Shown here one piece after another: positions 4,596-41,555 of a DNA stretch of 41,555 bases (positions within the stretch are counted from its first letter, which is position 1; each line of letters opens with the position of its first letter). The notes beneath the pieces were generated by a model, which saw nothing but the letters and a program-made list of their open reading frames with translations, was not told where the DNA came from and did not search any database. Made by a program: the position numbers and the translations under genes. This stretch comes from a virus. Lineage: Duplodnaviria > Heunggongvirae > Uroviricota > Caudoviricetes. The stretch lies in the IMG/VR virus record IMGVR_UViG_2698536372_000033; one strand, 5' to 3'.

Positions 4596-4985
4596 ATGAT
4601 TGACGCTCATGACTTCACAAGATGGGTGCGCACACAGGACACCCGTCTGGCTCCCGTTCTTCAGGGATTATTTGATCTCTACATCCGTGGTCGTGACAAC
4701 AGAGCACGCACCACAAAACCGGAGAATGCAGACACCCTTTATTTCACAGTAGACGACTGCTACCGCGTGGACTTCACACCACACGGGCTGGCGTTGCACT
4801 GCCTGACACCACACGGCGAATCACTGCTGGCGTATTACGACTCCCCGGCCTCCATATTTGCGGCAATGCTGGCGCATCGCACTGCTGGCGGGTGTGCCTC
4901 GCTGAGTGAATACTCCGCTGAATTTAACCGCCTTTCCGCCCTCTTCTCACAGGAGTGGCAGCGCGTGACGGGATACCAGCCATGA
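4596..4985 (+). CDS. Hypothetical early-operon protein upstream of replication gene
   Basis: 129-aa ORF; stop overlaps ATG 4982 of the replication gene. Confidence 0.5.
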   Translation: MIDAHDFTRWVRTQDTRLAPVLQGLFDLYIRGRDNRARTTKPENADTLYFTVDDCYRVDFTPHGLALHCLTPHGESLLAYYDSPASIFAAMLAHRTAGGCASLSEYSAEFNRLSALFSQEWQRVTGYQP

Positions 4986-7822
4986 GTGCGTTTGCATGGA
5001 GCTGGAATGAACCACGGCCAGCCATTGATCCGGCCAGATTTACGGAGCGCAGGCAGGAAACTGAAACCGACCTGCAACGCGCCATCCGTTACTACCTTGA
5101 GGCAAACAAAAGGGCACAGGAAGAACAGGAAGCGAAGGAAGAAGCCTTTTTCGCACAATCCACCGTGGGTAAAAAACTCATGGCATCCCTTGAGGAAGCC
5201 GGACAGCGTGAAAAGCTGGCACAAAGCATCATCAGCAAGCGTCAGGCAACAGAACAAGACCCGGTGGCCCGTGCTTTTGCCACACTGAAGGTGCTTCCCG
5301 TTTATCTGCGTGAACCTCTGAGCCGCCACCTCTCTTTTCTGCGCAAGAAGCAGGAAGCCGATCGTCAGAAAGGCAAAAAGAGCTGGCAGGCTGAACGCTA
5401 CGCGCGCGGAACCCTGCGCAAAATATTCGAACGTCTGGACCGCACCGACAGCCGCTGGCTGACACCGGGCTATCGCTCCCTTGCCGGACGCGAACGCCTG
5501 GACGATTTGCTTTACCTGCCGCAGCTCAACAAACACCAGATACAGACGCTGGCCACCATGACGGCGGCGATGTTCAGTGGCACTTTTGAAAAACTCTGCG
5601 ATGGCTTTGGCGCGACCGATGGCGAGCTGACCATGGATGTAACGCTGAAGGCGTATCAGATGCTGGCCCGCATGGCGTTACACCTGCACGCTATGCCTCC
5701 ACATTATGACGCTCTGACAACAGACAAAGACCGGAGGAATGAACCGGACACGGAGCTGCTGCCGGGCGCAATCCTTCGCCTGACCTGTGCGGAATGGTGG
5801 AAACGCAAACTGTGGCTGTTACGTTGCGAGTGGAGAGAAGAACAACTCCGCGCCGCCTGTCTGGTTTCCAGAAAAACATCACCCTATCTGAGCCAGGACG
5901 CGTTAAGCGAGTTTCGCGCACAGCGCGAGAAAACACGCGATTTCCTGAAAAGTTTCATGCTGGAAAACGAAGACGGGTTCACGATTGATCTCGAGACAGT
6001 GTATTACGCGGGAGTAAGTAACCCGATTCACCGTAAGGCAGAAATGATGGCCACCATGAAGGGGCTGGAACTTCTGGCCGAAGCCCGTGGCGACAGAGCG
6101 GTGTTTCTGACTGTCACCTGCCCGTCAAAATACCACGCCACAACAGAGAACGGTCATCCGAATCCCAAATGGAACGGGGCCACCATGCGCGACTCCAGCG
6201 ATTACCTGGTTAACACGTTTTTTGCGGCGGTCCGCAAGAAACTGAACCGCGACGGCCTGCGCTGGTATGGCATCCGCACGGTGGAGCCTCACCATGACGG
6301 CACCGTGCACTGGCATATGATGGTCTTTGCTCATCCGGAAGAAATCGACACCATTGTGTCCCACACCCGCGATATTGCCATTCAGGAAGACCGCCACGAG
6401 CTGGGCAATGATATTACTCCGCGCTTTAAGGTGGAGTATGTCGACGGCTCAAAAGGCACGCCAACCAGCTACATCGCCACCTACATCGGAAAGAACCTGG
6501 ACAGCCGCGCCGTGGATGGCATCGACCCGAAAACGGGCAAGCCACGCGTTGACCACGAAACCGGAAAATCAATGGCCGAGAGCGTGGAACGCGCCATCGG
6601 CTGGGCACGCCTTCACCGGGTCCGCCAGTTCCAGTTCTTTGGCATCCCCTCCCGTCAGGTATGGCGTGAACTCCGCCGCCTTGCCAGCCAGATGGCACGC
6701 AACCCGGAAGGCCCACAACGGCTGAAGGATGATGCAATGGATGCGGTACTCGCTGCCGCTGATGCCGGGTGTTTTGCCACCTACATTGAGAAACAGGGCG
6801 GCGTACTTGTTCCACGCAAAGACTACCTGATTCGCACCGCCTACGACCTCGCAGATGAGCTGAACGATTACGGCGAACAGAGCGTACAGATTTACGGGAT
6901 CTGGTCACCACTCATCGGGGAATCCTCCCGTGTGTGCACGCACCCGGATAACTGGAAGCTGGTAAGACGTAAACCGGAAGCGGAAGACAGCACCCGCGAA
7001 AATGGTTTTGACCTTCAGGGCGGCCCTGCCGCCCCTTGGACTCGTGGCAATAACTGTCCCCGTGTACAGGAAACGGACAACAACGGGACAGAACAGCCGG
7101 AAGAAAGGCCAGCACCGTGGCCGCAGCTTCCTGACGGCGTTGACGTGAATGAATGGATGCGCTCACTGAAACGGCACGAACGCCGGGCGCTGATGCGTTC
7201 GCTGCGTGACAAACAGGCAAAAAACAGCAGTGATGAAATGCAGAACTGGACACAGAGCCGCAAACAGCCACGGCCTTTGCCTGATAATCACGAGTTACTC
7301 GCTAAAGAATGGCGGGAGTCTGCTGAATCTCTCGGCCTGCATATCGGTGAACAGCAGATGCAGCACCTGTTACGGGGCGGCAGTCTGTACGTTGACGGCA
7401 GCATCATTGCACCGCAGGGATTTGAAATTGTACGCAAACCAGATACCCGCCCGGACAGCCGAATCACGCAACTCTGGCAGCGCCTGAGCCGTAATCACGG
7501 CGTAAGCAGCACGGAGATCCGCCATAACCCGGTCGCCAGCTATCTGGAACAGCTGGGGGCATCAGACCCCGAAGCCGCCGCACACCTGGCATCCACACTT
7601 CAGCAGGACCAGAACACCATGAAAACCCCCGTTACCGTGCTTTCTGACATGCTGCGCGCCATCCGTGACGCAGTGCACGCACAGAGAATCAGTGAAACCA
7701 CTGAACGCGCCCACCGCAAAGCAGACCTGCTGCGGGGTAGCCTGACCAGTGGAAACAAAAAACAGACAGAAACGGGACTCACAAATCCCGTAAATGAGCA
7801 AAAAACGTGCCGCGATATATGA
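4982..7822 (+). CDS. A: Replication initiation endonuclease (P2 gpA-like rolling-circle initiator)
   Basis: About 950-aa ORF in the P2 gene A position; contains histidine-hydrophobic motif HWHMMVFAH typical of rolling-circle initiators; start uncertain (ATG 4982 or in-frame GTG 4955). Confidence 0.85.
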   Translation: MSAFAWSWNEPRPAIDPARFTERRQETETDLQRAIRYYLEANKRAQEEQEAKEEAFFAQSTVGKKLMASLEEAGQREKLAQSIISKRQATEQDPVARAFATLKVLPVYLREPLSRHLSFLRKKQEADRQKGKKSWQAERYARGTLRKIFERLDRTDSRWLTPGYRSLAGRERLDDLLYLPQLNKHQIQTLATMTAAMFSGTFEKLCDGFGATDGELTMDVTLKAYQMLARMALHLHAMPPHYDALTTDKDRRNEPDTELLPGAILRLTCAEWWKRKLWLLRCEWREEQLRAACLVSRKTSPYLSQDALSEFRAQREKTRDFLKSFMLENEDGFTIDLETVYYAGVSNPIHRKAEMMATMKGLELLAEARGDRAVFLTVTCPSKYHATTENGHPNPKWNGATMRDSSDYLVNTFFAAVRKKLNRDGLRWYGIRTVEPHHDGTVHWHMMVFAHPEEIDTIVSHTRDIAIQEDRHELGNDITPRFKVEYVDGSKGTPTSYIATYIGKNLDSRAVDGIDPKTGKPRVDHETGKSMAESVERAIGWARLHRVRQFQFFGIPSRQVWRELRRLASQMARNPEGPQRLKDDAMDAVLAAADAGCFATYIEKQGGVLVPRKDYLIRTAYDLADELNDYGEQSVQIYGIWSPLIGESSRVCTHPDNWKLVRRKPEAEDSTRENGFDLQGGPAAPWTRGNNCPRVQETDNNGTEQPEERPAPWPQLPDGVDVNEWMRSLKRHERRALMRSLRDKQAKNSSDEMQNWTQSRKQPRPLPDNHELLAKEWRESAESLGLHIGEQQMQHLLRGGSLYVDGSIIAPQGFEIVRKPDTRPDSRITQLWQRLSRNHGVSSTEIRHNPVASYLEQLGASDPEAAAHLASTLQQDQNTMKTPVTVLSDMLRAIRDAVHAQRISETTERAHRKADLLRGSLTSGNKKQTETGLTNPVNEQKTCRDI

Positions 7823-7898
7823 AGCGCGCACAAAACAGGCAAAAGCGGGATTTAAAAATCCTGTAACCGATTAATTAATCAACACAAGGAAAAGCGAC

Positions 7899-8858
7899 AT
7901 GAAAATTTGTATCGACGACGGCTCCACCAACATCAAGCTGGCATGGACTGAGAACGGCGAACGCCGCAACGCCATCAGCCCGAACAGCTTCAAGTCGGAA
8001 TGGTCTGCGCCGTTCGGTGGCACGCAGCCCGCGAACTACATGCTTGATGGCGTGCGCTATGGTTTTGATCCGGTCAGCGATCGCTTTGTCCAGACGACCG
8101 ACACGCAATACCAGTACAGCGATGTGAATATAATTGCCATTCATCACGCGCTGGTCAAATCAGGCATCACACCACAGGAAGTGGATGTGGTTGTCACCCT
8201 GCCACTGAGCGAGTATTTCGATACAAACGCACAGCCGGACATGGCCAACATCAACCGCAAAAAAGCGAACGTCATGCGCCCGGTGGAGTACCAGAACGGC
8301 GAAGCATTCACTATCCGTAACGTACGGGTTATGCCTGAATCCATTCCGGCTGGCTTTAAGGCACTGGCTGACATGAGTCCGTTTGAATCCCTGCTGATTG
8401 TGGATTTGGGCGGAACCACTCTGGATGTGGCAAAGGTTCAGGGGCAACTGGCAGGTATCAGCCAGGTGTTTTGCGATCCACACGTGGGCGTTTCTCTGAT
8501 GGCCGATGCCGTACTGTCGGTGATGGCCACTAACGGTATGCGCACCAGTCACCACATCGCCAATACCATTATCGAACATCGCCATGATGAAGCCTGGCTG
8601 CGCCAGCACATCCACAATGACGCGCATTACGCCAGCCTGATGGCGGTTATTCGTGAAAAGGAAGAAACACTGAAACAACGCGTGATCCGCGCGCTGGCGG
8701 GTTTTTCGGGTTACGGGCGGGTGATGGTTGTCGGTGGAGGGGCGGAGATTGTGGCACCCGCTATCCGCGAAGCCTGCGGAGTTAATGCGACTTTCATCGC
8801 GGACGGGGTGCCACAGTTTGCTCTGGTTAATGGGCTGTACGCAATGGACAAGGAGTAA
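7899..8858 (+). CDS. parM: ParM/StbA-like actin-family segregation ATPase
   Basis: 319 aa; N-terminus MKICIDDGSTNIKLAW and internal VMPESIPAG, DLGGTTLD, VMVVGGGAE closely follow plasmid R1 ParM as I recall it (phosphate-1, phosphate-2 and adenosine motifs of actin fold). Confidence 0.8.
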   Translation: MKICIDDGSTNIKLAWTENGERRNAISPNSFKSEWSAPFGGTQPANYMLDGVRYGFDPVSDRFVQTTDTQYQYSDVNIIAIHHALVKSGITPQEVDVVVTLPLSEYFDTNAQPDMANINRKKANVMRPVEYQNGEAFTIRNVRVMPESIPAGFKALADMSPFESLLIVDLGGTTLDVAKVQGQLAGISQVFCDPHVGVSLMADAVLSVMATNGMRTSHHIANTIIEHRHDEAWLRQHIHNDAHYASLMAVIREKEETLKQRVIRALAGFSGYGRVMVVGGGAEIVAPAIREACGVNATFIADGVPQFALVNGLYAMDKE

Positions 8859-8862
8859 ACCA

Positions 8863-9174
8863 ATGACGACTCCAACCAGACGGATAAGTTTCTATCTGAA
8901 GCCCACCGCCGTCAAGAACGAAGGAGAAGCATGCGCCTGGCTGGACAGCCTTACACCAGAAGCCCGCAAAAGCGGCCAACGCGTGGCTTTTCTGGCCGGG
9001 CTGGCACTTCTGAAAATGAATCCGGCAGAGGCTTATCGACTGGCTGCATGGGCTGGTGATGAAGCGTTATCAGTGACACAAACCAGGACAGAACGCCCCG
9101 CATCACAGCCAGTATCAACCGCACAGATAACCAGTCAGATGGCCGGAAATATCCGGGCGTTATTTCCTGAATAA
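8863..9174 (+). CDS. parR: ParR-like adaptor/centromere-binding protein
   Basis: ATG at 8863, 7 nt after AGGAG and 4 nt after parM stop; 103 aa; RRISFYLKP...LDSLTPEARKS...AFLAGLALLK parallels R1 ParR N-terminus (RRTIAFKLNP...DSIPQGERS...AALTAGLALY); ORF-track start 8728 is too far upstream. Confidence 0.6.
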   Translation: MTTPTRRISFYLKPTAVKNEGEACAWLDSLTPEARKSGQRVAFLAGLALLKMNPAEAYRLAAWAGDEALSVTQTRTERPASQPVSTAQITSQMAGNIRALFPE

Positions 9175-9192
9175 CACAACATCAGGGCGAGT

Positions 9193-9210
9193 TCGCCCTG
9201 CTCTCCACCT
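9193..9210. repeat. Hairpin CAGGGCGA..TCGCCCTG, left copy of a pair flanking gene 9238-9828
   Basis: Inverted repeat read directly; same stem sequence recurs at 9841-9866. Confidence 0.5.
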
Positions 9211-9237: not shown

Positions 9238-9828
9238 ATGAGCGAAATCAACTATCAGGCATTACGTGAACGTTATTCACCTGTGCCAGTACCGAAATGC
9301 CCTATTTGCGGCGAGGAAATGTCAATTCAGCGAATATCTGGAGCACAGGTTGTTTATGCCTGCTCCGGTTATGGTGATGATGGAGATTTCAAAATTGGCC
9401 GAACTCTTGCCGACGAACATTATGAAAAATCACGCGTAACAGTGTTGGATGTCGGGGATCCTGAAGTATTGGCGCTACTTGATTGGCTGGAAACCAAAGA
9501 CAACCGAATCGCTGAACTGGAAAAAATCGCCACTGACTATGCACTTAAATTCCAGAAAGCACAGGACGCATTAAAGTATGCCGCTTTGCTGCATAGCAGG
9601 ACGGCGCAACAAACAAATAATTTTGCAGTATCGCTTCCGGACATAAGCGAATATTTCATTAATGACGTATTTCAGCCCTTGCGATACGAGCGGGATGTTG
9701 AAAGAGCCATCATAAAGGCTGGCGGAAAAGCATTGTGGCAGGAGAAACACGAGGACAGAACGCATCAGTCCTGCGATGTAAATCGTGGATGGTTTAGCCC
9801 ACTGACGACAGATAAAAATAACACCTGA
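9238..9828 (+). CDS. Hypothetical protein with N-terminal Cys-rich (zinc-ribbon-like) segment and coiled-coil
   Basis: 196 aa; CPICGEE...YACSG; RBS AAGGAGA upstream; flanked by similar hairpins. Confidence 0.55.
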   Translation: MSEINYQALRERYSPVPVPKCPICGEEMSIQRISGAQVVYACSGYGDDGDFKIGRTLADEHYEKSRVTVLDVGDPEVLALLDWLETKDNRIAELEKIATDYALKFQKAQDALKYAALLHSRTAQQTNNFAVSLPDISEYFINDVFQPLRYERDVERAIIKAGGKALWQEKHEDRTHQSCDVNRGWFSPLTTDKNNT

Positions 9829-10317: not shown

Positions 10318-11364
10318 TCAGGATGTGGGCTGGGTATCTAGCAGTGCGTAAGGGTTAAAGCGGATCACCTCTTCGCCAAGCCAGTCATTGATGTGCTTCA
10401 TGGCCTCCATAACGGGCATCAGCTCGTTAATTGCGTAAACCCGCGCGGCCTTCTCCACATCACCAAACGCACTTTTTTCGCCCGGCATCGCCCCCATCAG
10501 TTGCGGCGGAACGCGGTGCGCAGCCAGCACATCATCACGGGATGCCGCCTTAACATTCATGAACTCATCCTTTGCAGTGATCTGCTGGAACGGCAAAATT
10601 TGCACACCTTCTTTGCCCCCGTTGGGCGCATGGATGAGTACGTTTTTAAACGCACCACCACCACGCGCGCCCTGTAACGTTTCTTTCAGGGAGTCCATGC
10701 TTTCGCGGTTTACCTGCGCTGCACCGATGTAGATGATGCACCCGGCGTGGGATCCGTTGTCGTAGTACAGTTTTCTGAACATGTCCGCCGAATGAGAAAG
10801 GCTGGCCGAGAGTAATGCGCCAAGATATTCCGGCATGCCGTAGATTTCCTGGTTAATATCCGGATTCATCAGGTGGCACACTTTGCCAGGGCGAAACTGG
10901 AACGCGTCCTTGCCATCCTGCACATACCACCATGATTCAAGATCGCTTCCGCGTCGCATGTATTTCGCCAGGGCGTGCCGTAATTTAAGCGGTTCGCCGA
11001 GCATATTACTTCTAAGCTCAAGGAATGCGTTACCGAACACAAACCAGTCCAGCGCCAGCGCCGAGAAATCCTGCCGGGAAAGCAGCGGGTGCGGGATGTA
11101 GCAACCGAGTAATACATTGCGCTTAAAGTAAAGCGCAGACTGATGCCAGGACGTTTGCCGGGCTGCTCTTGCCAGACCGTACCAGTCCACCGGGGTTTCA
11201 TACCACCGTCCGTTATCAGCACAGTACATATTGTCCAGCAGGTCATGCCCGGTCAGGCGATAAGGACCATCAAATGTGAATGCACTGAGCGATGATTCTT
11301 TCCTGAGCGCATCAGCGAGATCAATGCGTGAACTCATGCGCACTTTTTTATTTTTTCTGCTCAT
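10318..11364 (-). CDS. Q: Portal protein (P2 gpQ-like)
   Basis: 348 aa (P2 Q about 344 aa); immediately downstream of and overlapping the large terminase on the same strand, divergent from the scaffold/capsid operon, exactly as in P2. Confidence 0.85.
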   Translation of the reverse strand: MSRKNKKVRMSSRIDLADALRKESSLSAFTFDGPYRLTGHDLLDNMYCADNGRWYETPVDWYGLARAARQTSWHQSALYFKRNVLLGCYIPHPLLSRQDFSALALDWFVFGNAFLELRSNMLGEPLKLRHALAKYMRRGSDLESWWYVQDGKDAFQFRPGKVCHLMNPDINQEIYGMPEYLGALLSASLSHSADMFRKLYYDNGSHAGCIIYIGAAQVNRESMDSLKETLQGARGGGAFKNVLIHAPNGGKEGVQILPFQQITAKDEFMNVKAASRDDVLAAHRVPPQLMGAMPGEKSAFGDVEKAARVYAINELMPVMEAMKHINDWLGEEVIRFNPYALLDTQPTS

Positions 11365-17943: not shown

Positions 17944-18085
17944 CCAACCCACATGGGGAAACCTCGGAATATGGGGCGACCGCCTTCTGGATGCACTGGA
18001 AACCTGTAACGCGGATAAACGGGCCATTGCTGAACTGGATAAGAGAATAGCCGAACTGACACACCAGACGGGAGTAACACAATGA
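17804..18085 (+). CDS. o-spanin lipoprotein (Rz1 / LysC-like), partly overlapping i-spanin in another frame
   Basis: MNAPTLCLTLVLLTGCAG signal with lipobox LLTGC; proline-rich mature part. Confidence 0.55.
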   Translation: MNAPTLCLTLVLLTGCAGTQNAPRPAPSVRLIPQTLTMPVTPPPFPDQPTWGNLGIWGDRLLDALETCNADKRAIAELDKRIAELTHQTGVTQ

Positions 18086-19959
18086 CCAGTAAGAACTTTG
18101 CACTGATTACAGCCATGACACAGGCTGAACTGACTCAAAAGGTGAATGAACATCTTGCGAAAGGGTGGCATCTTCAGGGGGAGACGCGGGTTGCCTACGA
18201 ACCCGGCACCCCGTGGTATCTAATGCAGGCAATGGTGGCCGATGGCACTACAGACATCTCACCTGATTCCCCCCAGCACGGCAGCGTGCCGGAGTGGTAT
18301 TACGTGGTGGTACTTGCTGGTCAATCCAATGCCATGTCATATGGTGAGGGAATGCCGCTGCCGGATTCTTACGATGCGCCCCACCCACGCATTAAGCAAC
18401 TGGCCCGTCGCAACACAGTGACTCCCGGTGGTAAAGCATGCGCATTTAACGACATCATTCCGGCAGATCACTGCCTGCATGATGTTCAGGATATGAGCGT
18501 ACTGAATCACCCGAATGCAGACCTGAGCAAAGGGCAGTATGGCTGTGTCGGACAGGGCTTGCATATTGCCAAACGCCTGTTGCCTTACATTCCACAGAAT
18601 GCCGGGATTTTACTGGTTCCATGCTGTCGTGGTGGTTCGGCATTCACCCAGGGCGCGGAGGGGACATTCAGCGAGTCCACAGGAGCCAGTCAGGATTCGG
18701 CTCGCTGGGGTGTGGGTAAACCTTTATATCAGGACCTGATTTTGCGCACGAAGGCCGCATTGCAGAAAAACCCAAAAAACATGCTGCTGGCCGTATGCTG
18801 GATGCAGGGCGAATTTGACATGAGCGCCGCTACGTACTCACAGCAACCTCCGCTGTTTGCGGCCATGCTGAAACAGTTTCGTGCGGACATTACCGAGTTT
18901 AACACGCAGTGTCATGGAGGCAGAGCGGCAAGTGTGCCATGGATTTGTGGTGACACGACGTATTACTGGAAAAACACCTACGGCACGCAGTACGACACCA
19001 TTTACGGGGCGTACAAAAACAGGGAGAGCGACAACGTTTTCTTTGTGCCATTCCTGACCGATGGTAGTGGCAACAATACCTCCACCAACGCACCAACGGA
19101 AGATCCGGATGCTGCAAGTGAGGGATATTACGGTTCGGCATCCCGAACGAACAAAAACTGGGTATCATCAAATCGCCAGACGCATTTCAGTTCATGGGCG
19201 CGCAGGAGCATTATTCCGGATCGTATGGCAACCGCTATTCTGAACGTAGCCGGTCGCACCTTAGCCTTCATCAGTGGTAAGGCACCGGAAATCAAACCCT
19301 CGCCCGGCGGCAACACGCCATCGGGTCCGTCTGCAGATACGTCCGTTCGCACAATCTCCCTGCTGCCGGCAGCCGGAGAGGCTGCTGCGCAGGGCTGGAG
19401 CATTAAGGATGGCGGAATTCAGTTGTCAGATGGTGTATTTAAGATCACCAAGCAGAGCAATAAAACCTGGTCCCTGACGCATCCGGTGGATGACGCAATT
19501 ACCCTGCTGACACAGGGCGGCAGACTGACCTGTAAGTTCCGCCTGTCAGGCGCACTGACCAACAATCAGTTCGGTCTGGGAATTTATCTGTATACCGATG
19601 TAGCGTTACCTGACGTCGTGGCGATGACCGGGACTGGTAACCCGTTCCTGATGTCGTTCTTCACCCAGACCACAGACGGCAAACTGAATCTGATGCATCA
19701 CAAGAAAGCAGGAAACACAAAGTTGGGCGAGTTCGGGAATTACAGTAACGACTGGCAGACGCTGGAGCTGGTGTTCACCGCCAGCAGTGCCACGGTTACT
19801 CCGAAACTGAATGGAGTGGCTGGCCCGGCATTCCAGGTCATAAAAGACAGTCTGACACTGGGGCTGAATGCACTGACGCTGACGGATATTACCAAAAATG
19901 CAACGTATGGCGTTGAGATAGAAAGTCTGGTGCTGGAAATAAATAGTCCTGCAGCGTAA
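18082..19959 (+). CDS. Prophage NanS-p-like carbohydrate esterase (SGNH/sialate O-acetylesterase family) with C-terminal beta-rich putative carbohydrate-binding domain
   Basis: 625 aa; small N-terminal domain ALITAMTQAELTQKVNEHLAKGWHLQGE, then VVVLAGQSNAMSYGEG (GQSN motif of SASA-type esterases); sits after the lysis cassette as NanS-p genes do in lambdoid prophages. Confidence 0.7.
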   Translation: MTSKNFALITAMTQAELTQKVNEHLAKGWHLQGETRVAYEPGTPWYLMQAMVADGTTDISPDSPQHGSVPEWYYVVVLAGQSNAMSYGEGMPLPDSYDAPHPRIKQLARRNTVTPGGKACAFNDIIPADHCLHDVQDMSVLNHPNADLSKGQYGCVGQGLHIAKRLLPYIPQNAGILLVPCCRGGSAFTQGAEGTFSESTGASQDSARWGVGKPLYQDLILRTKAALQKNPKNMLLAVCWMQGEFDMSAATYSQQPPLFAAMLKQFRADITEFNTQCHGGRAASVPWICGDTTYYWKNTYGTQYDTIYGAYKNRESDNVFFVPFLTDGSGNNTSTNAPTEDPDAASEGYYGSASRTNKNWVSSNRQTHFSSWARRSIIPDRMATAILNVAGRTLAFISGKAPEIKPSPGGNTPSGPSADTSVRTISLLPAAGEAAAQGWSIKDGGIQLSDGVFKITKQSNKTWSLTHPVDDAITLLTQGGRLTCKFRLSGALTNNQFGLGIYLYTDVALPDVVAMTGTGNPFLMSFFTQTTDGKLNLMHHKKAGNTKLGEFGNYSNDWQTLELVFTASSATVTPKLNGVAGPAFQVIKDSLTLGLNALTLTDITKNATYGVEIESLVLEINSPAA

Positions 19960-25561: not shown

Positions 25562-25902
25562 TGACATTCAGAATGAGTGAACACTCACGGACCATAAAAA
25601 TTTATAATCTACTGACCGGAACCAATGAGTTTATTGGTGAAGGTGATGCATACATTCCACCTCATACAGGTCTGCCTGCAAACAGTACCGATATTGCCCC
25701 GCCAGATATTCCGGCTGGCTTCGTGGCCGTTTTCAACAGTGATGAGGCATCGTGGCATCTCGTTGAAGACCATCGGGGTAAAACGGTTTATGACGTGGCA
25801 TCAGGGGACTCGTTATTTATTTCTGAACTACGGTGCACCGATTCCGTGGCCATCAGATACCGTTCCGTCTGGTTATGCCCTGATGCAGGGGCAGACTTTT
25901 GA
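25561..25902 (+). pseudogene. Truncated tail fibre assembly chaperone (tfa, copy 1) interrupted by a duplication junction
   Basis: First about 90 codons identical to tfa copies 2-4, then reading frame runs into a second copy of the H 3' region at about 25831. Confidence 0.55.
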
Positions 25903-26434
25903 CAAATCTGCATACCCGAAACTTGCAGTCGCTTATCCGTCAGGCGTTATTCCTGATATGCGTGGCTGGACGATTAAGGGCAAGCCCGGCAGTGGTCGTG
26001 CCGTATTGTCTCAGGAACAGGACGGCATTAAATCGCACACCCACAGCGCCAGCGCATCCAGTACGGATTTGGGGACGAAAACCACATCGTCGTTTGATTA
26101 CGGTACTAAAACGACCAGTTCATTTGATTACGGCACAAAAACTACGAATAGCGCTGGAAATCATTCACACAATATACCTGTTGGTCACACTGGCGCGGGG
26201 AATGGTGTATCAGCCGGTTTTAACGCTGCGTTAGGTACTGGTACCACGTCGAGCGCAGGCGGGCATGCTCACAATGTATATATCGGTGCCCATAACCACA
26301 CTATCGGCATTGGTGCTCATGCCCATTCTGTCATTATTGGTCCCCACGGACACACCATCACCGTTAACGCTACGGGTAACGAAGAAAACACCGTAAAAAA
26401 CATCGCATTTAACTATATTGTGAGGCTTGCATAA
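25833..26434 (+). repeat. Duplicate of H C-terminal tip module (about 600 bp, about 99% identical to 24960-25561) with no start codon of its own
   Basis: Nucleotide repeat read directly; encodes [15 protein letters not shown]...NYIVRLA with only two substitutions (Y to F, E to G). Confidence 0.7.
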
Positions 26435-27006
26435 TGACATTCAGAATGAGTGAACAATCACGGACCATAAAAATTTATAATCTACTGGCTGGAACCAATG
26501 AGTTTATTGGTGAAGGTGATGCATACATTCCACCTCATACAGGTCTGCCTGCAAACAGTACCGATATTGCCCCGCCAGATATTCCGGCTGGCTTCGTGGC
26601 CGTTTTCAACAGTGATGAGGCATCGTGGCATCTCGTTGAAGACCATCGGGGAAAAACCGTCTATGACGTGGCTTCCGGCGACGCGTTATTTATTTCTGAA
26701 CTTGGCCCATTACCGGAAAATGTCACCTGGTTATCCCCGGAAGGGGAGTTTCAGAAGTGGAACGGCACAGCCTGGGTGAAAGATGCAGAAGCAGAAAAAC
26801 TGTTCCGGATCCGGAAGGCGGAAGAAACAAAAAACAGCCTGATGCAGATGGCCAGTGAGCATATTGCGCCACTTCAGGATGCCGTAGATTTGGATATTGC
26901 GACGGAGGAAGAGGCATCGTTACTGACTGCATGGAAGACATATCGGGTATTGTTGAATCGTGTTGATACAACAGTAGCATCGGATGTTGAGTGGCCAGAG
27001 TACTAA
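26434..27006 (+). CDS. Tail fibre assembly chaperone (tfa, copy 2, full length)
   Basis: 190 aa; start overlaps tip stop (ATAATG) as for H-G in P2. Confidence 0.75.
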
Positions 27007-27331
27007 AACGACCAGTTCATTTGATTACGGCACAAAAACTACGAATAGCGCTGGAAATCATTCACACAATATACCTGTTGGTCACACTGGCGCGGGGAAT
27101 GGTGTATCAGCCGGTTATAACGCTGCGTTAGGTACTGGTACCACGTCGAGCGCAGGCGAGCATGCTCACAATGTATATATCGGTGCCCATAACCACACTA
27201 TCGGCATTGGTGCTCATGCCCATTCTGTCATTATTGGTCCCCACGGACACACCATCACCGTTAACGCTACGGGTAACGAAGAAAACACCGTAAAAAACAT
27301 CGCATTTAACTATATTGTGAGGCTTGCATAA
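26996..27331 (+). repeat. Third, shorter copy of the H tip module (from AGTACTAAAACGACC onward)
   Basis: Identical to 25237-25561; begins at the same nucleotide as the tip segment fused into gene 30641-32149. Confidence 0.7.
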
Positions 27332-27909
27332 TGACATTCAGAATGAGTGAACACTCACGGACCATAAAAATTTATAATCTACTGACCGGAACCAATGAGT
27401 TTATTGGTGAAGGTGATGCATACATTCCACCTCATACAGGTCTGCCTGCAAACAGTACCGATATTGCCCCGCCAGATATTCCGGCTGGCTTCGTGGCCGT
27501 TTTCAACAGTGATGAGGCATCGTGGAATCTCGTTGAAGACCATCGGGGAAAAACCGTCTATGACGTGGCTTCCGGCGACGCGTTATTTATTTCTGAACTT
27601 GGCCCATTACCGGAAAATGTCACCTGGTTATCCCCGGAAGGGGAGTTTCAGAAGTGGAACGGCACAGCCTGGGTGAAAGATGCAGAAGCAGAAAAACTGT
27701 TCCGGATCCGGAAGGCGGAAGAAACAAAAAACAGCCTGATGCAGATGGCCAGTGAGCATATTGCGCCACTTCAGGATGCCGTAGATTTGGATATTGCGAC
27801 GGAGGAAGAGGCATCGTTACTGACTGCATGGAAGACATATCGGGTATTGTTGAATCGTGTTGATACAACAGTAGCATCGGATGTTGAGTGGCCAGTCGCC
27901 CCGCAATAA
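27331..27909 (+). CDS. Tail fibre assembly chaperone (tfa, copy 3, full length)
   Basis: 192 aa; near-identical to copy 2. Confidence 0.75.
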
Positions 27910-27916
27910 AAGGATA

Positions 27917-27944
27917 AAGCCATCGATAGAAATATTGATGGCTT
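27917..27944. terminator. Bidirectional hairpin between convergent tfa and acetyltransferase
   Basis: AAGCCATC-N12-GATGGCTT inverted repeat. Confidence 0.45.
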
Positions 27945-27952
27945 CATGTACT

Positions 27953-28525
27953 CTATTTATACAATACAACACCGCTCTTTTTTGTTATATATGTGCAGTT
28001 CGATGGTATATCTTTATTTATAAAAGACATTGCACCTATTTTTACATTATCCCCAATTTTACGTGATAATCCAATGATGCAACAATTAGCTCCGATATCA
28101 ACGTTACTACCAATTTTTACTCTTGAACCAGGCATGTCACCATCTACCTGTCCAATGGTAGTATTCTGTCGCAAAACCAGATTTTCACCAGCATCAACAG
28201 CAAAATGAACAACAATTCCAGTATGATGGGGAATTGTTAAACCTTTTCCAATATTTGCGCCCAATCCAATTTCGCAACCAAATCTGTTAATTATATTATT
28301 GTTTAACTTTCTGGCTGCTTTCTTATGTAATTTATTGCCATTAATATACATTTCATTAGCCAGTCTCCACCAGAAAAGGAAATTCCGATTGCGCTGCTTC
28401 TTCTCTCTTAATAGTCGCCAAACATCCATTTTTTCACGCCTGATGATTTCAGCCATCCAATAGCTCAATAGAGCTTTTGAATTCCCGAAGATGACAAAGT
28501 GAATAGCTATTAAGTAACATAACAT
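27953..28525 (-). CDS. Hexapeptide-repeat acyltransferase, serine O-acetyltransferase (CysE)-like, copy 1
   Basis: 190 aa; GANIGKGLTIPHHTGIVVHFAVDAGENLVL...IGSNVDIGANCCIIG...IGDNVKIGAMSFI matches left-handed beta-helix hexapeptide repeats and the CysE-type GxxIxH region; AT-rich. Confidence 0.75.
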   Translation of the reverse strand: MLCYLIAIHFVIFGNSKALLSYWMAEIIRREKMDVWRLLREKKQRNRNFLFWWRLANEMYINGNKLHKKAARKLNNNIINRFGCEIGLGANIGKGLTIPHHTGIVVHFAVDAGENLVLRQNTTIGQVDGDMPGSRVKIGSNVDIGANCCIIGLSRKIGDNVKIGAMSFINKDIPSNCTYITKKSGVVLYK

Positions 28526-28992
28526 ATTGCAACTGCCTATATTTTTGGGTTTCTATGGTTATATATTGACATTATAATTAAAACAATAATCATCAGTGTG
28601 TTACTGCGTTCCTGCTAAACTAAATCAACGCACAATGTAAACACAAATGTTAATTTTAAACTGAGCGCTAAAGGGATGTCAATATTGTATTGATAATGAG
28701 TTGCAAGATTGCCAACACTTTCTATATTTTTGGATGTAATAATTTATATTTTATCTATTTAGTGTTTCTTTAGACTTATTAAGGATGTCATTATTAATTT
28801 ATGGCTTGCCATTTCTATACATATCTGTTAAAAATTTTGACTTGTTTGTTGAAAATAGATTTAATTGATTGGTTTATTTTTTACATGACGCTCTTTAATA
28901 TAGCTTCAGGTATATATAAGCACAATGCATTATTTCCAGAGGAAATTAACAAAATTGTTAGCTCTTATTTGTTGAGCTTATAGATATTAATT

Positions 28993-29012
28993 AAGGCCCG
29001 ATTCCGGGCCTT
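28993..29012. terminator. Hairpin AAGGCCCG-ATTC-CGGGCCTT with flanking T/A runs (bidirectional terminator-like)
   Basis: Read directly; at the end of the 490-bp AT-rich spacer. Confidence 0.45.
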
Positions 29013-29280
29013 TCCTCATTCCGGCTTTTCGGGAAACGTTACTGGAAGGATGGAGGTATCCGTGGATTCGACTTTCTGCGCATAGAGAATCCACTCGGTT
29101 AATTTTTGTTTACCCTGAACGGAAATAATGCCTAGCCGTAACTGTGAGTCCCAGAGCTGAGTTTTATCCCTGACGAGCTGTAGCAGGCTTTGCTTTTCTT
29201 TTTCCGCTTGTTGTCTTTGCATGACCGGTTGAGAAGTTACTTTGCATACCATTACCTCCTGACAACGTAGGAGGGAACTT

Positions 29281-29610
29281 GTGCTTGACACACAGGAATT
29301 AGCTCCAGTTGCTATTGCGCTCCTGCTTTCAGTAATTGGTGGGATAGGCACGTTCCTGATGGATGTCCGAGACGGTCGCCAGTCTGGCAATTTGTTGGGA
29401 TTGGTTACGGAGATCTTTGTTGCAGTGACAGCTGGCGCGGTGGCGTACCTATTGGGGCAACACGAGGGCTGGGAGTTATCAATTACGTACTTAATGGTAA
29501 CGATAGCCAGCAATAACGGTCATGAGGTGATTTCAGGGATGAAACGAGTGAATATCGATAGCATTCTGAATGTTCTTACAAGTTTGGTGAAAAAGGGAGG
29601 TGGGAAATGA
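29281..29610 (+). CDS. Small two-helix membrane protein (holin-like topology), gene 1 of novel operon
   Basis: 109 aa; GTG start 5 nt after TAGGAGGG; hydrophobic helices LAPVAIALLLSVIGGIGTFLM and IFVAVTAGAVAYLLG; basic C-terminal tail. Confidence 0.5.
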   Translation: MLDTQELAPVAIALLLSVIGGIGTFLMDVRDGRQSGNLLGLVTEIFVAVTAGAVAYLLGQHEGWELSITYLMVTIASNNGHEVISGMKRVNIDSILNVLTSLVKKGGGK

Positions 29611-30050
29611 TTGGCTGGGGTGTATGCGCTCTTGCGTTAGCCTTAGCCGATCGCTATTTGCTAAAACGCAAGGACATCACGCATTTAGAACTTGGTGATG
29701 TGGAAATTAAACCGGGTTTCATCCGGGTGCCGTTCAAATACCGGTCTAAATTCCCGTTTTTGCGCGGCGCAACGGTCAGATATTGGATCCGCGATGTTCA
29801 GAAGCCAACGACAGTGATTGAAGGCGAACAACGTTGTCTGACGTCGGCTGAACAGGGCGAAAACAGTGAATGGTTGTACATACCCACTGAATATATGGGT
29901 AAAGGAGAACGGCTGTGGCATTTCAACGTCATGGTTACGCATGGCGACTCGTTCATTAACCCGTTGTATCGGATTTTCCCTGTTACTCAGCAAATCCGCA
30001 GAAGTTACGTAATAAATCTCGCACAGGATGTGTCAGATGACGAAAAATAA
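29607..30050 (+). CDS. N-terminally membrane-anchored protein of unknown function, gene 2 of novel operon
   Basis: 147 aa; start overlaps previous stop (ATGA); N-terminal hydrophobic MIGWGVCALALALA. Confidence 0.5.
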   Translation: MIGWGVCALALALADRYLLKRKDITHLELGDVEIKPGFIRVPFKYRSKFPFLRGATVRYWIRDVQKPTTVIEGEQRCLTSAEQGENSEWLYIPTEYMGKGERLWHFNVMVTHGDSFINPLYRIFPVTQQIRRSYVINLAQDVSDDEK

Positions 30051-30639
30051 GTATGCAACGGTCGATTTTGACCAGGTTAATGAAAAGGGGCTGAAATCCC
30101 TTATCGCGGCGATCAATAAAACCGGTGTTACGGTAATTGAGGTTGACTCCAGCAACCGCGCAACAACGAAAGATGGCGTTAAAGTTAAAACCGCAAAGCT
30201 GGTTCTTAACGACGGACAAATTCTTGCCATACAGGTAAACGATACTGGCGATATATCGTCTGTGAGGCTGAATGGAAAAGCTATTCCTAACGCTCAGTCG
30301 CCGGATATCAAGACGCTTGGTACCGTCATGGGGCAAGCGGCCCGCAAAAACTCCGCAAAATTCCAGAAATCACTGATCGCCAAAGCGAAACGTGTTGCCA
30401 ATCCGGTAGACAAGAAACCGGCAGTAAAATCCAACTTTCAGCGCCTGCAAGAGGCAAAACAGCGGAATGCTCAGGTGGTTGCCGCTTATAAATCAGCGCA
30501 GAACTCGGTGTCTTTCAATCAACAGCAGATCACTGATTTGCGGGCGAAGCTGGATAAGGAGACAGGCCGACTCAATAACGAAAAGGCCCGAAATGGCGAA
30601 CTCAAACGCCGTCTTAAGCAACTGAAAGCAGGAAATTAA
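30028..30639 (+). CDS. Coiled-coil protein of unknown function, gene 3 of novel operon
   Basis: 203 aa; overlaps gene 2 by 23 nt; contains motif KNSAKFQ then basic/coiled-coil tail; a 23-nt stretch is near-identical to one in gene 4. Confidence 0.5.
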
Positions 30640-30640
30640 C

Positions 30641-32149
30641 ATGGAACAGTTCAATATCAATAAAGGGGTGACGATCAAGCCTGGGCTTGACGTGCTTCCC
30701 CCGCCAGTGACTGATGATGAATATCGCGCATTAATGGCCGGTGAGGACCGCTATCTGATGACGGAATCCAACACCCTGGAGGAAATCGAGGCTACGTTCT
30801 TCTATGACACGCCGATCCACTGGTGTGCTACGGATTTACTGGAGGCGATTAGTTCTACTCGTTTGCAGCTACACCGGACCATGCAGGCATTTGTCCGGGC
30901 ATTGAACCAGAAGCTGAATGGTACCGGAATCTCTGCGGGGAGTGATAAAACGGGGGACGTGGCCCAGAACGGTGCACGCGCGATCGGCGGGGCTGAAATT
31001 GGCCGGGCACGTAACGTTAACGGGCTGCCGGTCCTGCCAGCCATTATTCCGCTCAGTGATGGTCAGACTATCAGCATTCTGTTTCATAGCCCGACAGCGG
31101 AAAACCGGATCACCAATAGCGATACGCTGATTGCTTTCCAGTTCTTACTGAATAAAAAAGACGTTACTCATACCGTTGCTCCGATGAGTGGACGTGATAT
31201 GACGCTGGCGCAGGTCACCATGAAACTTGCCAACCTTGCAGAGAAAAACTCGGCAAAATTCCAGCGTGCGCAGAAGAAGAAAAAAGCCCTGGTTGATGAA
31301 ATAACCCAACTACAGGCTGACAGTGACCAGAAAGAGGATGCCATGAGCGACCTCGCGGATCAGGTGGCAGCGGTAGAAGGGCAGAAGGTAGATCTGGAGC
31401 AGAAAATTAACGCTGTTGCATCGGAAGCGGATTCTCTTTATGAAGAGAATGAGCGTTTGCAGACGGAGATTGATCAGCTCAATCGAACTGGTGGGCGCGA
31501 AACCATTGCTCCTGCGGGGATGACTGGTAGACACTCTCGCGCGATGACGGATCGCCTTGCAAGTATCAAAAATCGTATGCATATGAACGGGGAAGTGACG
31601 CTCAGTAATGGTGCATCAATGAAGCAATTCATTGAGGACGGTGAAGGGTATATCCAGTTAACCGATTCGGATGGCAGCGTGTACATGATCAAGGCTAAAT
31701 CCATACAGGGTGTGGACATGGCAGATGCGATCGGCAAGCTGTTTAAAGCCTATAAAGCGGGTAATGTATCGGAATATCTGGTCCAACCAGAAGAACATAA
31801 ACCGGAAAACGTCGAAAGTACTAAAACGACCAGTTCATTTGATTACGGCACAAAAACTACGAATAGCGCTGGAAATCATTCACACAATATACCTGTTGGT
31901 CACACTGGCGCGGGGAATGGTGTATCAGCCGGTTATAACGCTGCGTTAGGTACTGGTACCACGTCGAGCGCAGGCGAGCATGCTCACAATGTATATATCG
32001 GTGCCCATAACCACACTATCGGCATTGGTGCTCATGCCCATTCTGTCATTATTGGTCCCCACGGACACACCATCACCGTTAACGCTACGGGTAACGAAGA
32101 AAACACCGTAAAAAACATCGCATTTAACTATATTGTGAGGCTTGCATAA
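30641..32149 (+). CDS. Chimeric protein: novel 390-aa N-terminal region (with coiled-coil) fused to the tail-fibre His-rich tip module, gene 4 of novel operon
   Basis: 502 aa; start 2 nt after gene 3 stop; last 115 aa ([10 protein letters not shown]...NYIVRLA) identical to the H tip from the AGTACTAAAACG breakpoint; followed by a tfa copy. Confidence 0.6.
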
Positions 32150-32728
32150 TGACATTCAGAATGAGTGAACACTCACGGACCATAAAAATTTATAATCTAC
32201 TGACCGGAACCAATGAGTTTATTGGTGAAGGTGATGCATACATTCCACCTCATACAGGTCTGCCTGCAAACAGTACCGATATTGCCCCGCCAGATATTCC
32301 GGCTGGCTTCGTGGCCGTTTTCAACAGTGATGAGGCATCGTGGCATCTCGTTGAAGACCATCGGGGTAAAACGGTTTATGACGTGGCATCAGGGGACTCG
32401 TTATTTATTTCTGAACTCGGTCCATTACCGGAAAATGTTACCTGGTTGTCGCCGTATGGAGAGTATCAGAAGTGGAACGGCACATCCTGGGTGAAAGATG
32501 CAGAAGCAGAAAAACTGTTTCGGATAAGGGAGGCGGAAGAAACAAAAAAACAGCCTGATGCAGGTAGCCAGCGAGCATATTGCGCCACTTCAGGATGCCG
32601 TAGATTTGGATATTGCAACGGAGGAAGAGGCATCGTTACTGGCTGCATGGAAGACATACCGGGTATTGTTGAATCGTGTTAATACAGCGGTAGCAGCGGA
32701 TGTTGAGTGGCCAGTCGCCCCACAATAA
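32149..32728 (+). pseudogene. Tail fibre assembly chaperone (tfa, copy 4) with +1 frameshift in an A7 run
   Basis: A7 at about 32550-32556 versus A6 in copies 2 and 3; ORF terminates early at 32682 while the shifted frame continues to the normal stop at 32726-32728. Confidence 0.55.
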
Positions 32729-40733: not shown

Positions 40734-41555
40734 GTGGGAAACAATAAAGTGAAATTAGGAAGAAATGATAAGTGCTGGTGTAATTCAGGACTTAAGTATA
40801 AAAAGTGCCATCTTGGTCGAGATCGTGAAACTCCGGTATCCAAAGCCGAGGCACTGAAATTTTCAAAGTCTCTCTCGCAGAGAAAGGCATGTTATGCGCC
40901 AGCATCCATGCACGAAGATTGTGATAAACGCATCGTTCAGGCGCATACGATATCTAAGAGCAGTAGCCTTAAGGCGATCGCCGACTCCAGCAATCACGTC
41001 ATGGGGGTGATAATGAACTTAGCAAGCCTGATGAGAAACAACGGAAAATGGCTTCCCGAGAAGATCGGTATCAATCAGGCATCCACTTTTACAGGATTTT
41101 GTGCAGTTCATGACAGAATCTTATTTTCATGCCTAGAGAACGAAAAATTTACAGGCACGGACGAGCAGTGCTTTGCCTTAATGTTTCGTTCATTGTCTAA
41201 AGAAATTTATGCCAAAGAAGGGGGAGTGCTATCTTCTGATTTTGCTAAAAATGCCGATAAAGGAAAGCTACAAGTTGAACAGTATTATATTCAGAAATTA
41301 ATCGACCAGCACCAAAGTGGCTTAAATGCAGCAATAATTGAATTAAATAATCTTAAAACTAGCCTCGACCGCATCCTACTTAGCAGGCAATTTTCAGAAA
41401 TTGAAAGTGTTATCTTCACTTTTGCAGAGCCTTTACCAATTGTAGTTTCGTCAATTCTTTCACCGGAGAGGGATTTCGATGGGACCAAAATTCAGGATTT
41501 GAGCGATCTGAGGTGTACTGGCAATAGCGGACACTACCATTTGTTCTTTTTTTAA
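40734..41555 (+). CDS. SEC-C metal-binding motif protein of unknown function (AT-rich, at or beyond prophage right end)
   Basis: 273 aa; N-terminal CWCNSGLKYKKCH matches the SecA C-terminal zinc-binding (SEC-C) motif; GTG start with weak RBS; stop is the last codon of the window. Confidence 0.5.
   Translation: MGNNKVKLGRNDKCWCNSGLKYKKCHLGRDRETPVSKAEALKFSKSLSQRKACYAPASMHEDCDKRIVQAHTISKSSSLKAIADSSNHVMGVIMNLASLMRNNGKWLPEKIGINQASTFTGFCAVHDRILFSCLENEKFTGTDEQCFALMFRSLSKEIYAKEGGVLSSDFAKNADKGKLQVEQYYIQKLIDQHQSGLNAAIIELNNLKTSLDRILLSRQFSEIESVIFTFAEPLPIVVSSILSPERDFDGTKIQDLSDLRCTGNSGHYHLFFF

Follow-up and report, generated by a model that had tools for sequence, protein, structure and literature searches.

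A ParMRC-like partition cassette in P88-like temperate phages and its candidate centromere

Why would a phage that integrates into the chromosome of its host keep a partition motor? The question is a real one, for which no experimental answer was found in the literature, and it is raised by a two-gene locus (positions 7899–9174) in a 41,555-nucleotide stretch of viral DNA, IMG/VR record IMGVR_UViG_2698536372_000033, referred to here at its full length as the window. By sequence comparison the window comes from a P2-like phage (Peduoviridae) of the genus Xuanwuvirus, present as a P88-like prophage in Escherichia coli, and the same comparison makes the cassette a complete and near-constant part of P88-like (Xuanwuvirus) P2-like temperate phages. 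With middling confidence we propose that it is an active type II ParMRC-like partition cassette which serves transient circular phage genomes.

The cassette has been seen before. Public phage and RefSeq records annotate its genes as “plasmid segregation protein ParM” and “partition protein”, Rousset 2022 (PMC9122126) noted it in P2-like phages and Pfeifer 2021 noted it as well, both with the same idea that the element may persist as a plasmid, and the phiSM gene was listed as a fitness factor by Magaziner et al. 2019. Both the puzzle and the plasmid hypothesis have appeared in print and the finding itself is known; new here are the assignment of a probable centromere, the conservation of ParR in modules, a measure of how strong selection is, and a census that speaks against a plasmid lifestyle.

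The ParM–ParR pair and its candidate centromere

The first gene, parM (7899–8858, + strand), encodes an actin-like partition ATPase of 319 amino acids and is preceded by the sequence AAGGA (7888–7892, + strand) as its ribosome-binding site. A sequence-only reading of the window had described a ParM-like ATPase followed by a small ParR-like protein at these positions and had looked to profile searches for a check; the description is upheld by matches in Pfam and PHROG and to the ParM of plasmid R1. Both ParM domains were matched in Pfam (StbA_N, 3.7e-82; ParM C-terminal domain, 1.3e-68), the PHROG match was family 691, “partition protein” (7e-90), and the sequence of the R1 ParM crystal structure 1mwk aligned end to end with the phage protein (residues 2–316, E 1.2e-92). 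The nucleotide-binding motifs DDGSTNIK, MPESIPAG, DLGGTTLD and GGGAE are all intact, and by its sequence the protein is the actin-fold ATPase that a type II (ParMRC) system requires. Plasmid ParMs are 50–52% identical to it, the nearest being those of IncL/M (pOXA-48-like) and related enterobacterial plasmids, at 52% protein and ~66% nucleotide identity.

The second gene, parR (stbB-type; 8863–9174, + strand), starts at ATG 8863, 4 nt after the parM stop codon, and its ribosome-binding site AAGGAG (8850–8855, + strand) lies immediately ahead of that stop codon. The TTG at 8728, given as the start by the open reading frame (ORF) lister, overlaps parM and was rejected. The product is a putative centromere-binding adaptor of 103 amino acids, which matched Pfam PF10784 (Plasmid_stab_B, the StbB/ParR family; 3.1e-23) and PHROG 2515, again “partition protein” (1.7e-57). 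A single-sequence search of the PDB with ParR gave no match, and a profile of 25 ParR alleles had as its best match there the pB171 ParR 2JD3 (“StbB protein”), a weak one (E 0.014) that covers the whole DNA-binding domain. An AlphaFold2 model of the ParR monomer, based on the 25 alleles, was too poor for fold confirmation or a fold search (predicted local distance difference test, pLDDT, 53.5), and at this low confidence it predicts a helix at residues 86–100. On the profile matches, ParM and ParR are true members of the ParM and ParR/StbB families, and as judged from sequence the adaptor of a type II system is supplied by a small ribbon-helix-helix gene directly downstream of parM.

Conservation along ParR is modular. 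In an alignment of the 25 alleles, which were taken from a large protein collection, the N-terminal ribbon-helix-helix domain (residues 1–66) contains an invariant strand, RRISFYLKP, the linker (residues 67–95) is hypervariable and the C-terminal NIRALFPE is almost invariant. The N-terminal domain shares 24–25% identity with the IncL/M ParR and with the StbB/ParR encoded beside an R1-identical ParM (locus L008), and the C-terminal tail lines up with KKNAMKLIN of the R1 type and KNVQHLFP of IncL/M. In R1, ParM is bound by the C-terminal peptide of ParR, and from the alignment NIRALFPE is a putative ParM-binding tail. The gene is also mosaic, with a break near 8917 and two allele classes at ~51% protein identity (synonymous divergence, dS, ~1.26) which have their first 18 and last 8 codons in common; the parM genes in front of the two classes are at least 97% identical (dS 0.03). 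Neither class has lost the DNA-reading strand or the tail, and both have the same sites upstream.

These upstream sites are two 38-nt direct repeats, 79% identical and 73 bp apart. Unit 1 of the candidate parC (7756–7793, + strand) lies within the last codons of the phage replication gene A and consists of an A/C-rich arm (CAAAAAACAGACAGAAAC) followed by the palindrome CGGGACT-CACA-AATCCCG at 7773–7790. Unit 2 (7829–7866, + strand) falls within the 76 bp that separate gene A from parM, its palindrome being CGGGATT-TAAA-AATCCTG at 7846–7863, and the core common to both units is the palindrome GGGAYT-N4-AATCCY. The sequence-only reading had reported two hairpins here and no iteron-type array. 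The hairpins are real and coincide with the two palindromes, and the second statement also holds: a matrix built from the ten 11-bp iterons of the R1-type parC (L008) gave 84 matches in the window, two of them overlapping and near parM, and no array. That reading had, however, set the hairpins aside, whereas they are the cores of conserved repeats and the best centromere candidate.

With up to one mismatch allowed, CGGGATT-N4-AATCCCG occurs at two sites in the 41.5-kb window and at no site in any of 100 shuffles. In all 23 loci with the phage-type cassette, a count that included stretches of 21–48 kb, the palindrome motif was present exactly twice and always just upstream of parM; it was absent from both plasmid loci compared. 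One of these loci, from a Hafnia-like relative, has a diverged gene A 3' end whose stop codon sits inside the first palindrome, yet both units, their palindromes and the 73-bp spacing are kept, hence the conservation of unit 1 is no by-product of gene A coding. The IncL/M parMR locus has upstream repeats too, similarly spaced at 72–73 bp, but these are unrelated in sequence, T-rich and without the GGGATT palindrome. The invariance of the DNA-reading strand of ParR fits the invariance of the DNA sites; a profile scan of the genome contigs with the ParR alignment found 3 loci only, too few for an analysis of covariation between ParR and its sites. The region 7756–7866 is a probable parC and probably also an operator, to which ParR would bind, and it defines a compact, testable centromere candidate.

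As terminators the hairpins were rejected, the + strand having no T-run and the minus strand giving only a pattern match with no gene to terminate. Just 3' of parR, a GC-rich stem-loop (CAGGGCGAGTTCGCCCTG; 9183–9200, + strand) forms the right edge of the conserved cassette, and P88-type homology stops at 9174–9200 of the window. This stem-loop also has no + strand T-run, and the terminator scan flagged it on the minus strand only.

Conservation and chromosomal residence

Comparison with P88 and phiSM indicates that the cassette is selectively maintained under strong purifying selection. The ratio of nonsynonymous to synonymous substitution rates (dN/dS) is 0.016–0.028 for parM and 0.18–0.22 for parR, and the higher value for parR is in keeping with a linker that drifts freely. 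The cassette is 99.7% identical to that of Xuanwuvirus P884B11 and 94–97% identical to those of Escherichia phage P88, Citrobacter phage phiSM and other Peduoviridae. P884B11, P88, phiSM and CP-933T-type prophages all carry the same cassette (DNA 94–99.7% identical); nothing material differs among them, and the window is one more copy.

In E. coli, parM was found in 1303 of 5426 complete genomes (~24%), always at ≥90% identity and in lineages that include O157, O26, O103 and ST131, and the cassette is retained across several genera. Prophages with an identical 319-amino-acid ParM (L018–L027) have at least three different integrases and integration sites, located at yecA–leuZ, in a FecCD/GSHPx/ABC-transporter cluster and in a 2-hydroxyacid-dehydrogenase/semialdehyde-dehydrogenase region, and their immunity genes differ as well. 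This exact ParM is indexed in 13,414 blocks of the collection searched.

The sequence-only reading had put the pair at the P2 accessory locus of tin and old, between gene A and the portal end, and this position is confirmed: parMR sits between gene A and the portal gene, co-directional with gene A, and occupies the gpA–gpQ accessory locus. This locus is a hotspot at which P2 has old and tin (Rousset 2022, PMC9122126). From its linkage to the replication gene, the cassette behaves as near-core in the P88-like lineage and not as shuffled hotspot cargo. The 3' end of the P88-type gene A was found at 1533 places in the E. coli genomes against 1443 for parM, with ~94% of these gene A copies accompanied by parM. 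Furthermore, all 14 phage records with the 3' part of gene A at 7120–7750, which encodes the C-terminal extension of the P88-type gpA, also carry parMR (14/14), and in the phage database the gene A 3' kilobase was found solely in these 14 parMR-bearing phages. In O157-type remnants (L006, 2710–3618; L017, 26353–27356) the head genes have gone and parR directly adjoins an IS3-family element; gene A, parM and parR are still intact.

Extrachromosomal persistence as a phage-plasmid, which the sequence-only reading had offered as an explanation together with a search for the element as an episome, found no support in the census. In the 5426 genomes parM was found at 1441 chromosomal places and at 2 on records labelled plasmid. 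The “plasmid” place that was checked, pNJS001-2 (NZ_CP114132.1), has fliC, uvrC, tRNAs and yecA around a prophage at the usual site and is chromosomal DNA. Among database records with the cassette, CP061244.1 (1.41 Mb, labelled plasmid) is by its size probably not a plasmid. A circular form would join the integrase end, the 121-bp attachment (att) core and the hok side; a contiguous attP junction of this kind was found for this lineage in none of the 5426 E. coli genomes. Among contigs encoding the identical ParM, ten of ten sampled have host genes beside the integrase.

The episome search in the sequence records yielded NZ_CP148288.1, NZ_CP049283.1 and NZ_CP114132.1 as candidates, none of them convincing. 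The only phage-sized circular record is NZ_CP148288.1 in PLSDB, which holds a whole P88-like genome of 34,461 bp. It was rejected as an episome, with gpD, sheath, tape-measure and portal genes frameshifted and the record absent from the RefSeq E. coli set, and it has the look of a poor assembly or of an excised circle that happened to be captured. The Shigella “plasmid” NZ_CP049283.1 was likewise rejected, being a linear prophage fragment riddled with IS1. No copy-controlled plasmid-type replication module was seen beside the cassette, where gpA is the only replication function, or in the part of the rest of the window that was screened. The extrachromosomal prophage maintenance of phage-plasmids of the P1, N15 and SSU5 kind was not found, and the sequence record, with which transient phage circles may remain compatible, gives no support to a stable phage-plasmid lifestyle. 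A stable phage-plasmid is no longer the default explanation for the cassette.

Possible roles of the cassette

If the cassette is active, ParR dimers would bind the two palindrome units through the N-terminal ribbon-helix-helix strand, which would make the upstream region a centromere and, probably, an operator. The conserved C-terminal tail of ParR would then capture the ends of ParM filaments, and ATP-driven filaments would push two DNA copies apart. As virtually all sequenced lysogens have the element in the chromosome, we infer that the cassette acts in extrachromosomal phases, on circular genomes either between infection and integration or once excision has taken place and early replication is under way. 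Partition would put phage copies into both daughter cells, with no stable plasmid prophage supported. More tentatively, this near-fixed and strongly constrained partition motor of an integrating rolling-circle phage would act on short-lived circles, either improving the odds that both daughters of an infected or excising cell keep the phage or organising circles during replication. If true, this would give ParMRC a new role in the life cycle of tailed phages, and the palindromes would be a minimal two-unit centromere unlike the R1 iteron array.

Several points weigh against this proposal. A ParM spindle cannot work with fewer than two copies of the DNA and would be no help to a single non-replicating circle, P2-type rolling-circle replication is tied to lytic development, and the time window for useful partition may be short. 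Two candidate binding units are visible, against ten iterons in R1. A standard scan of the + strand gave no convincing sigma-70 promoter, and a relaxed scan gave only TTTAAA-17-ATTAAT (7851–7879; 8 of 12, weak), which overlaps unit 2; parMR may be read from this weak, ParR-overlapped promoter or by read-through from the early operon. No experiment on this cassette was found in the searchable literature, and papers on the O157 proteome and a ciprofloxacin transcriptome, with one supplement, held nothing specific to parM/parR expression in lysogens. P88, which is inducible, and phiSM, which is spontaneously active, are workable experimental systems.

Among known systems, R1/NR1 ParMRC (parA/stb) has the same order of centromere, parM and parR, a ParM that aligns over its full length, repeat blocks upstream of parM and a homologous ParR (25% identity) that shares the N-terminal strand region and the C-terminal tail. 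It differs in that R1 parC is built of ten A/C-rich iterons of 11 bp, arranged as two blocks with five in each, whereas the phage has two 38-nt units with 16–18-bp palindromes, and in that its replicon is a low-copy plasmid, here an integrating phage. The ParR motif KNVQHLFP of IncL/M resembles the phage NIRALFPE, but the IncL/M ParR is longer (147 amino acids) and 24% identical to that of the phage. The best functional analogy is srpMRC of the SXT/R391 integrative and conjugative elements (ICEs), likewise a type II partition system on a normally chromosomal element, which stabilises the excised circle and a partition-defective test plasmid (Carraro 2015, PMC4489591). However, while the phage ParM is closely homologous to the R1 type, SrpM and SrpR are related to R1 ParMR only distantly, and srpMRC belongs to a conjugative element and has had its function shown, whereas the phage cassette is known from sequence. 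AlpC/AlpA/alpS of the Corynebacterium glutamicum prophage CGP3 (PMC4446434) also combines a prophage actin-like protein with a DNA-binding adaptor and cognate sites. By its description it differs in belonging to another actin-like family, in its Gram-positive host and in serving viral DNA replication and transport.

A role of this last kind, in which ParM and ParR are co-opted for the lytic cycle and position or spread replicating circles in the manner of AlpC/AlpA, aiding replication or packaging with no part in cell division, is in our view unlikely. It would suit the linkage of the cassette to the P88-type gene A and the position of parM, 76 bp after gene A in the same direction; with no + strand terminator and no clear promoter of its own, parM may be read with the early replication operon, and AlpAC provides a precedent (PMC4446434, PMC5539076). 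Yet the phage pair is an ordinary R1-type ParM/ParR, as close to plasmid ParMs as given above and without phage-specific changes, and about three quarters of P2-like phages have no cassette yet replicate well.

The idea in print (Rousset 2022; Pfeifer 2021) is that of a true phage-plasmid, whose integrated state would alternate with a stable plasmid maintained by ParMRC, for example where the attachment site is missing or occupied. Gene A, the probable origin and parMRC do resemble a replication-plus-partition module, and the circular 34,461-bp record is of the form expected. Against this stand the 1441 chromosomal places beside two labelled plasmid, of which the checked one is chromosomal, the zero count of contiguous attP junctions, the ten of ten integrated contigs, and the state of the records themselves, the sole circular one frameshifted and outside RefSeq and the Shigella one a linear fragment. 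Furthermore, the integrase is kept in all copies and a lytic rolling-circle initiator is the only replication function, and we judge such a phage-plasmid improbable.

Quite improbable, too, is a lysogenic-conversion trait, in which resident ParR, parC and ParM would exclude related phages or plasmids by centromere incompatibility or would affect the handling of the host chromosome. The gpA–gpQ locus is a hotspot of exclusion and defence genes expressed by prophages, and the divergence of ParR alleles in linker and helices, to ~51% behind a near-identical parM, can reflect conflict. However, PADLOC models gave no match (at E 0.01 or better) to ParM, ParR or the neighbouring Ead/Ea22-like ORF, and neither the DNA-reading strand nor the DNA sites vary, which argues that specificity is not diversifying. 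A tblastn search of PLSDB with ParR found 7 records only, each carrying the prophage itself, hence there is no obvious plasmid target, nor can a plasmid donor be named. That the cassette is an inert, functionless passenger, captured once from a plasmid, would accord with a known cargo hotspot and with its persistence in degraded remnants such as those of O157 type, but is very improbable given the low dN/dS of parM (0.016–0.028), ORFs and both DNA sites intact in all loci examined, functional modules of ParR conserved around a freely drifting linker, and retention over at least three integrase/immunity backgrounds and several genera.

The prophage and its neighbourhood

P2-family gene content is seen in a near-identical prophage of E. 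coli O103 RM8385, with whose chromosome the window is 99.9% identical except for ~6 kb of extra tail-fibre cassettes. The RM8385 prophage lies between tRNA-Leu (leuZ) and yecA and has at its borders a 121-bp direct repeat, which takes in the 3' end of tRNA-Leu. The window spans from the integrase stop codon to a YecA-family gene of the prophage, and no att junction lies within it. This YecA-family (SEC-C motif) gene is carried near one end of the prophage (window 40734–41555; L012, 45073–45738), and a prophage with its own YecA-family gene thus integrates beside the host yecA.

Gene A (4955–7822, + strand; replication, Phage_GPA 8.9e-130) is of P88 type, with a product of ~946–955 amino acids. 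The gpA of P2 is shorter than that of the P88 type, and no Pfam domain covers 7120–7750 in the C-terminal extension. In Klebsiella, Salmonella and Yersinia P2-like phages, the only nucleotide-conserved part of the last kilobase of gene A is at ~7016–7087 (81–91%); by this conservation it may be the origin or nick site of replication, and it lies ~700 bp ahead of the candidate centromere. On the other side of the cassette, the Ead/Ea22-like ORF (9238–9828) lies between parR and the portal gene (10318–11364), which is on the minus strand, as are the terminase genes.

The ~6 kb absent from RM8385 (window 25838–31817) consists of repeated tail-fibre and tail-fibre-assembly cassettes, the copies being 95–97% identical. 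An Rfam IS009 match lies in each tail-fibre cassette (26777–26975, 27674–27872 and 32492–32691), and the repeats may represent either a genuine host-range region of several cassettes or a duplication that arose in assembly. Between the lysis and tail genes, a 625-amino-acid gene (18082–19959; SASA/DUF6645 domains in related loci) is missing from several relatives and is cargo-like.

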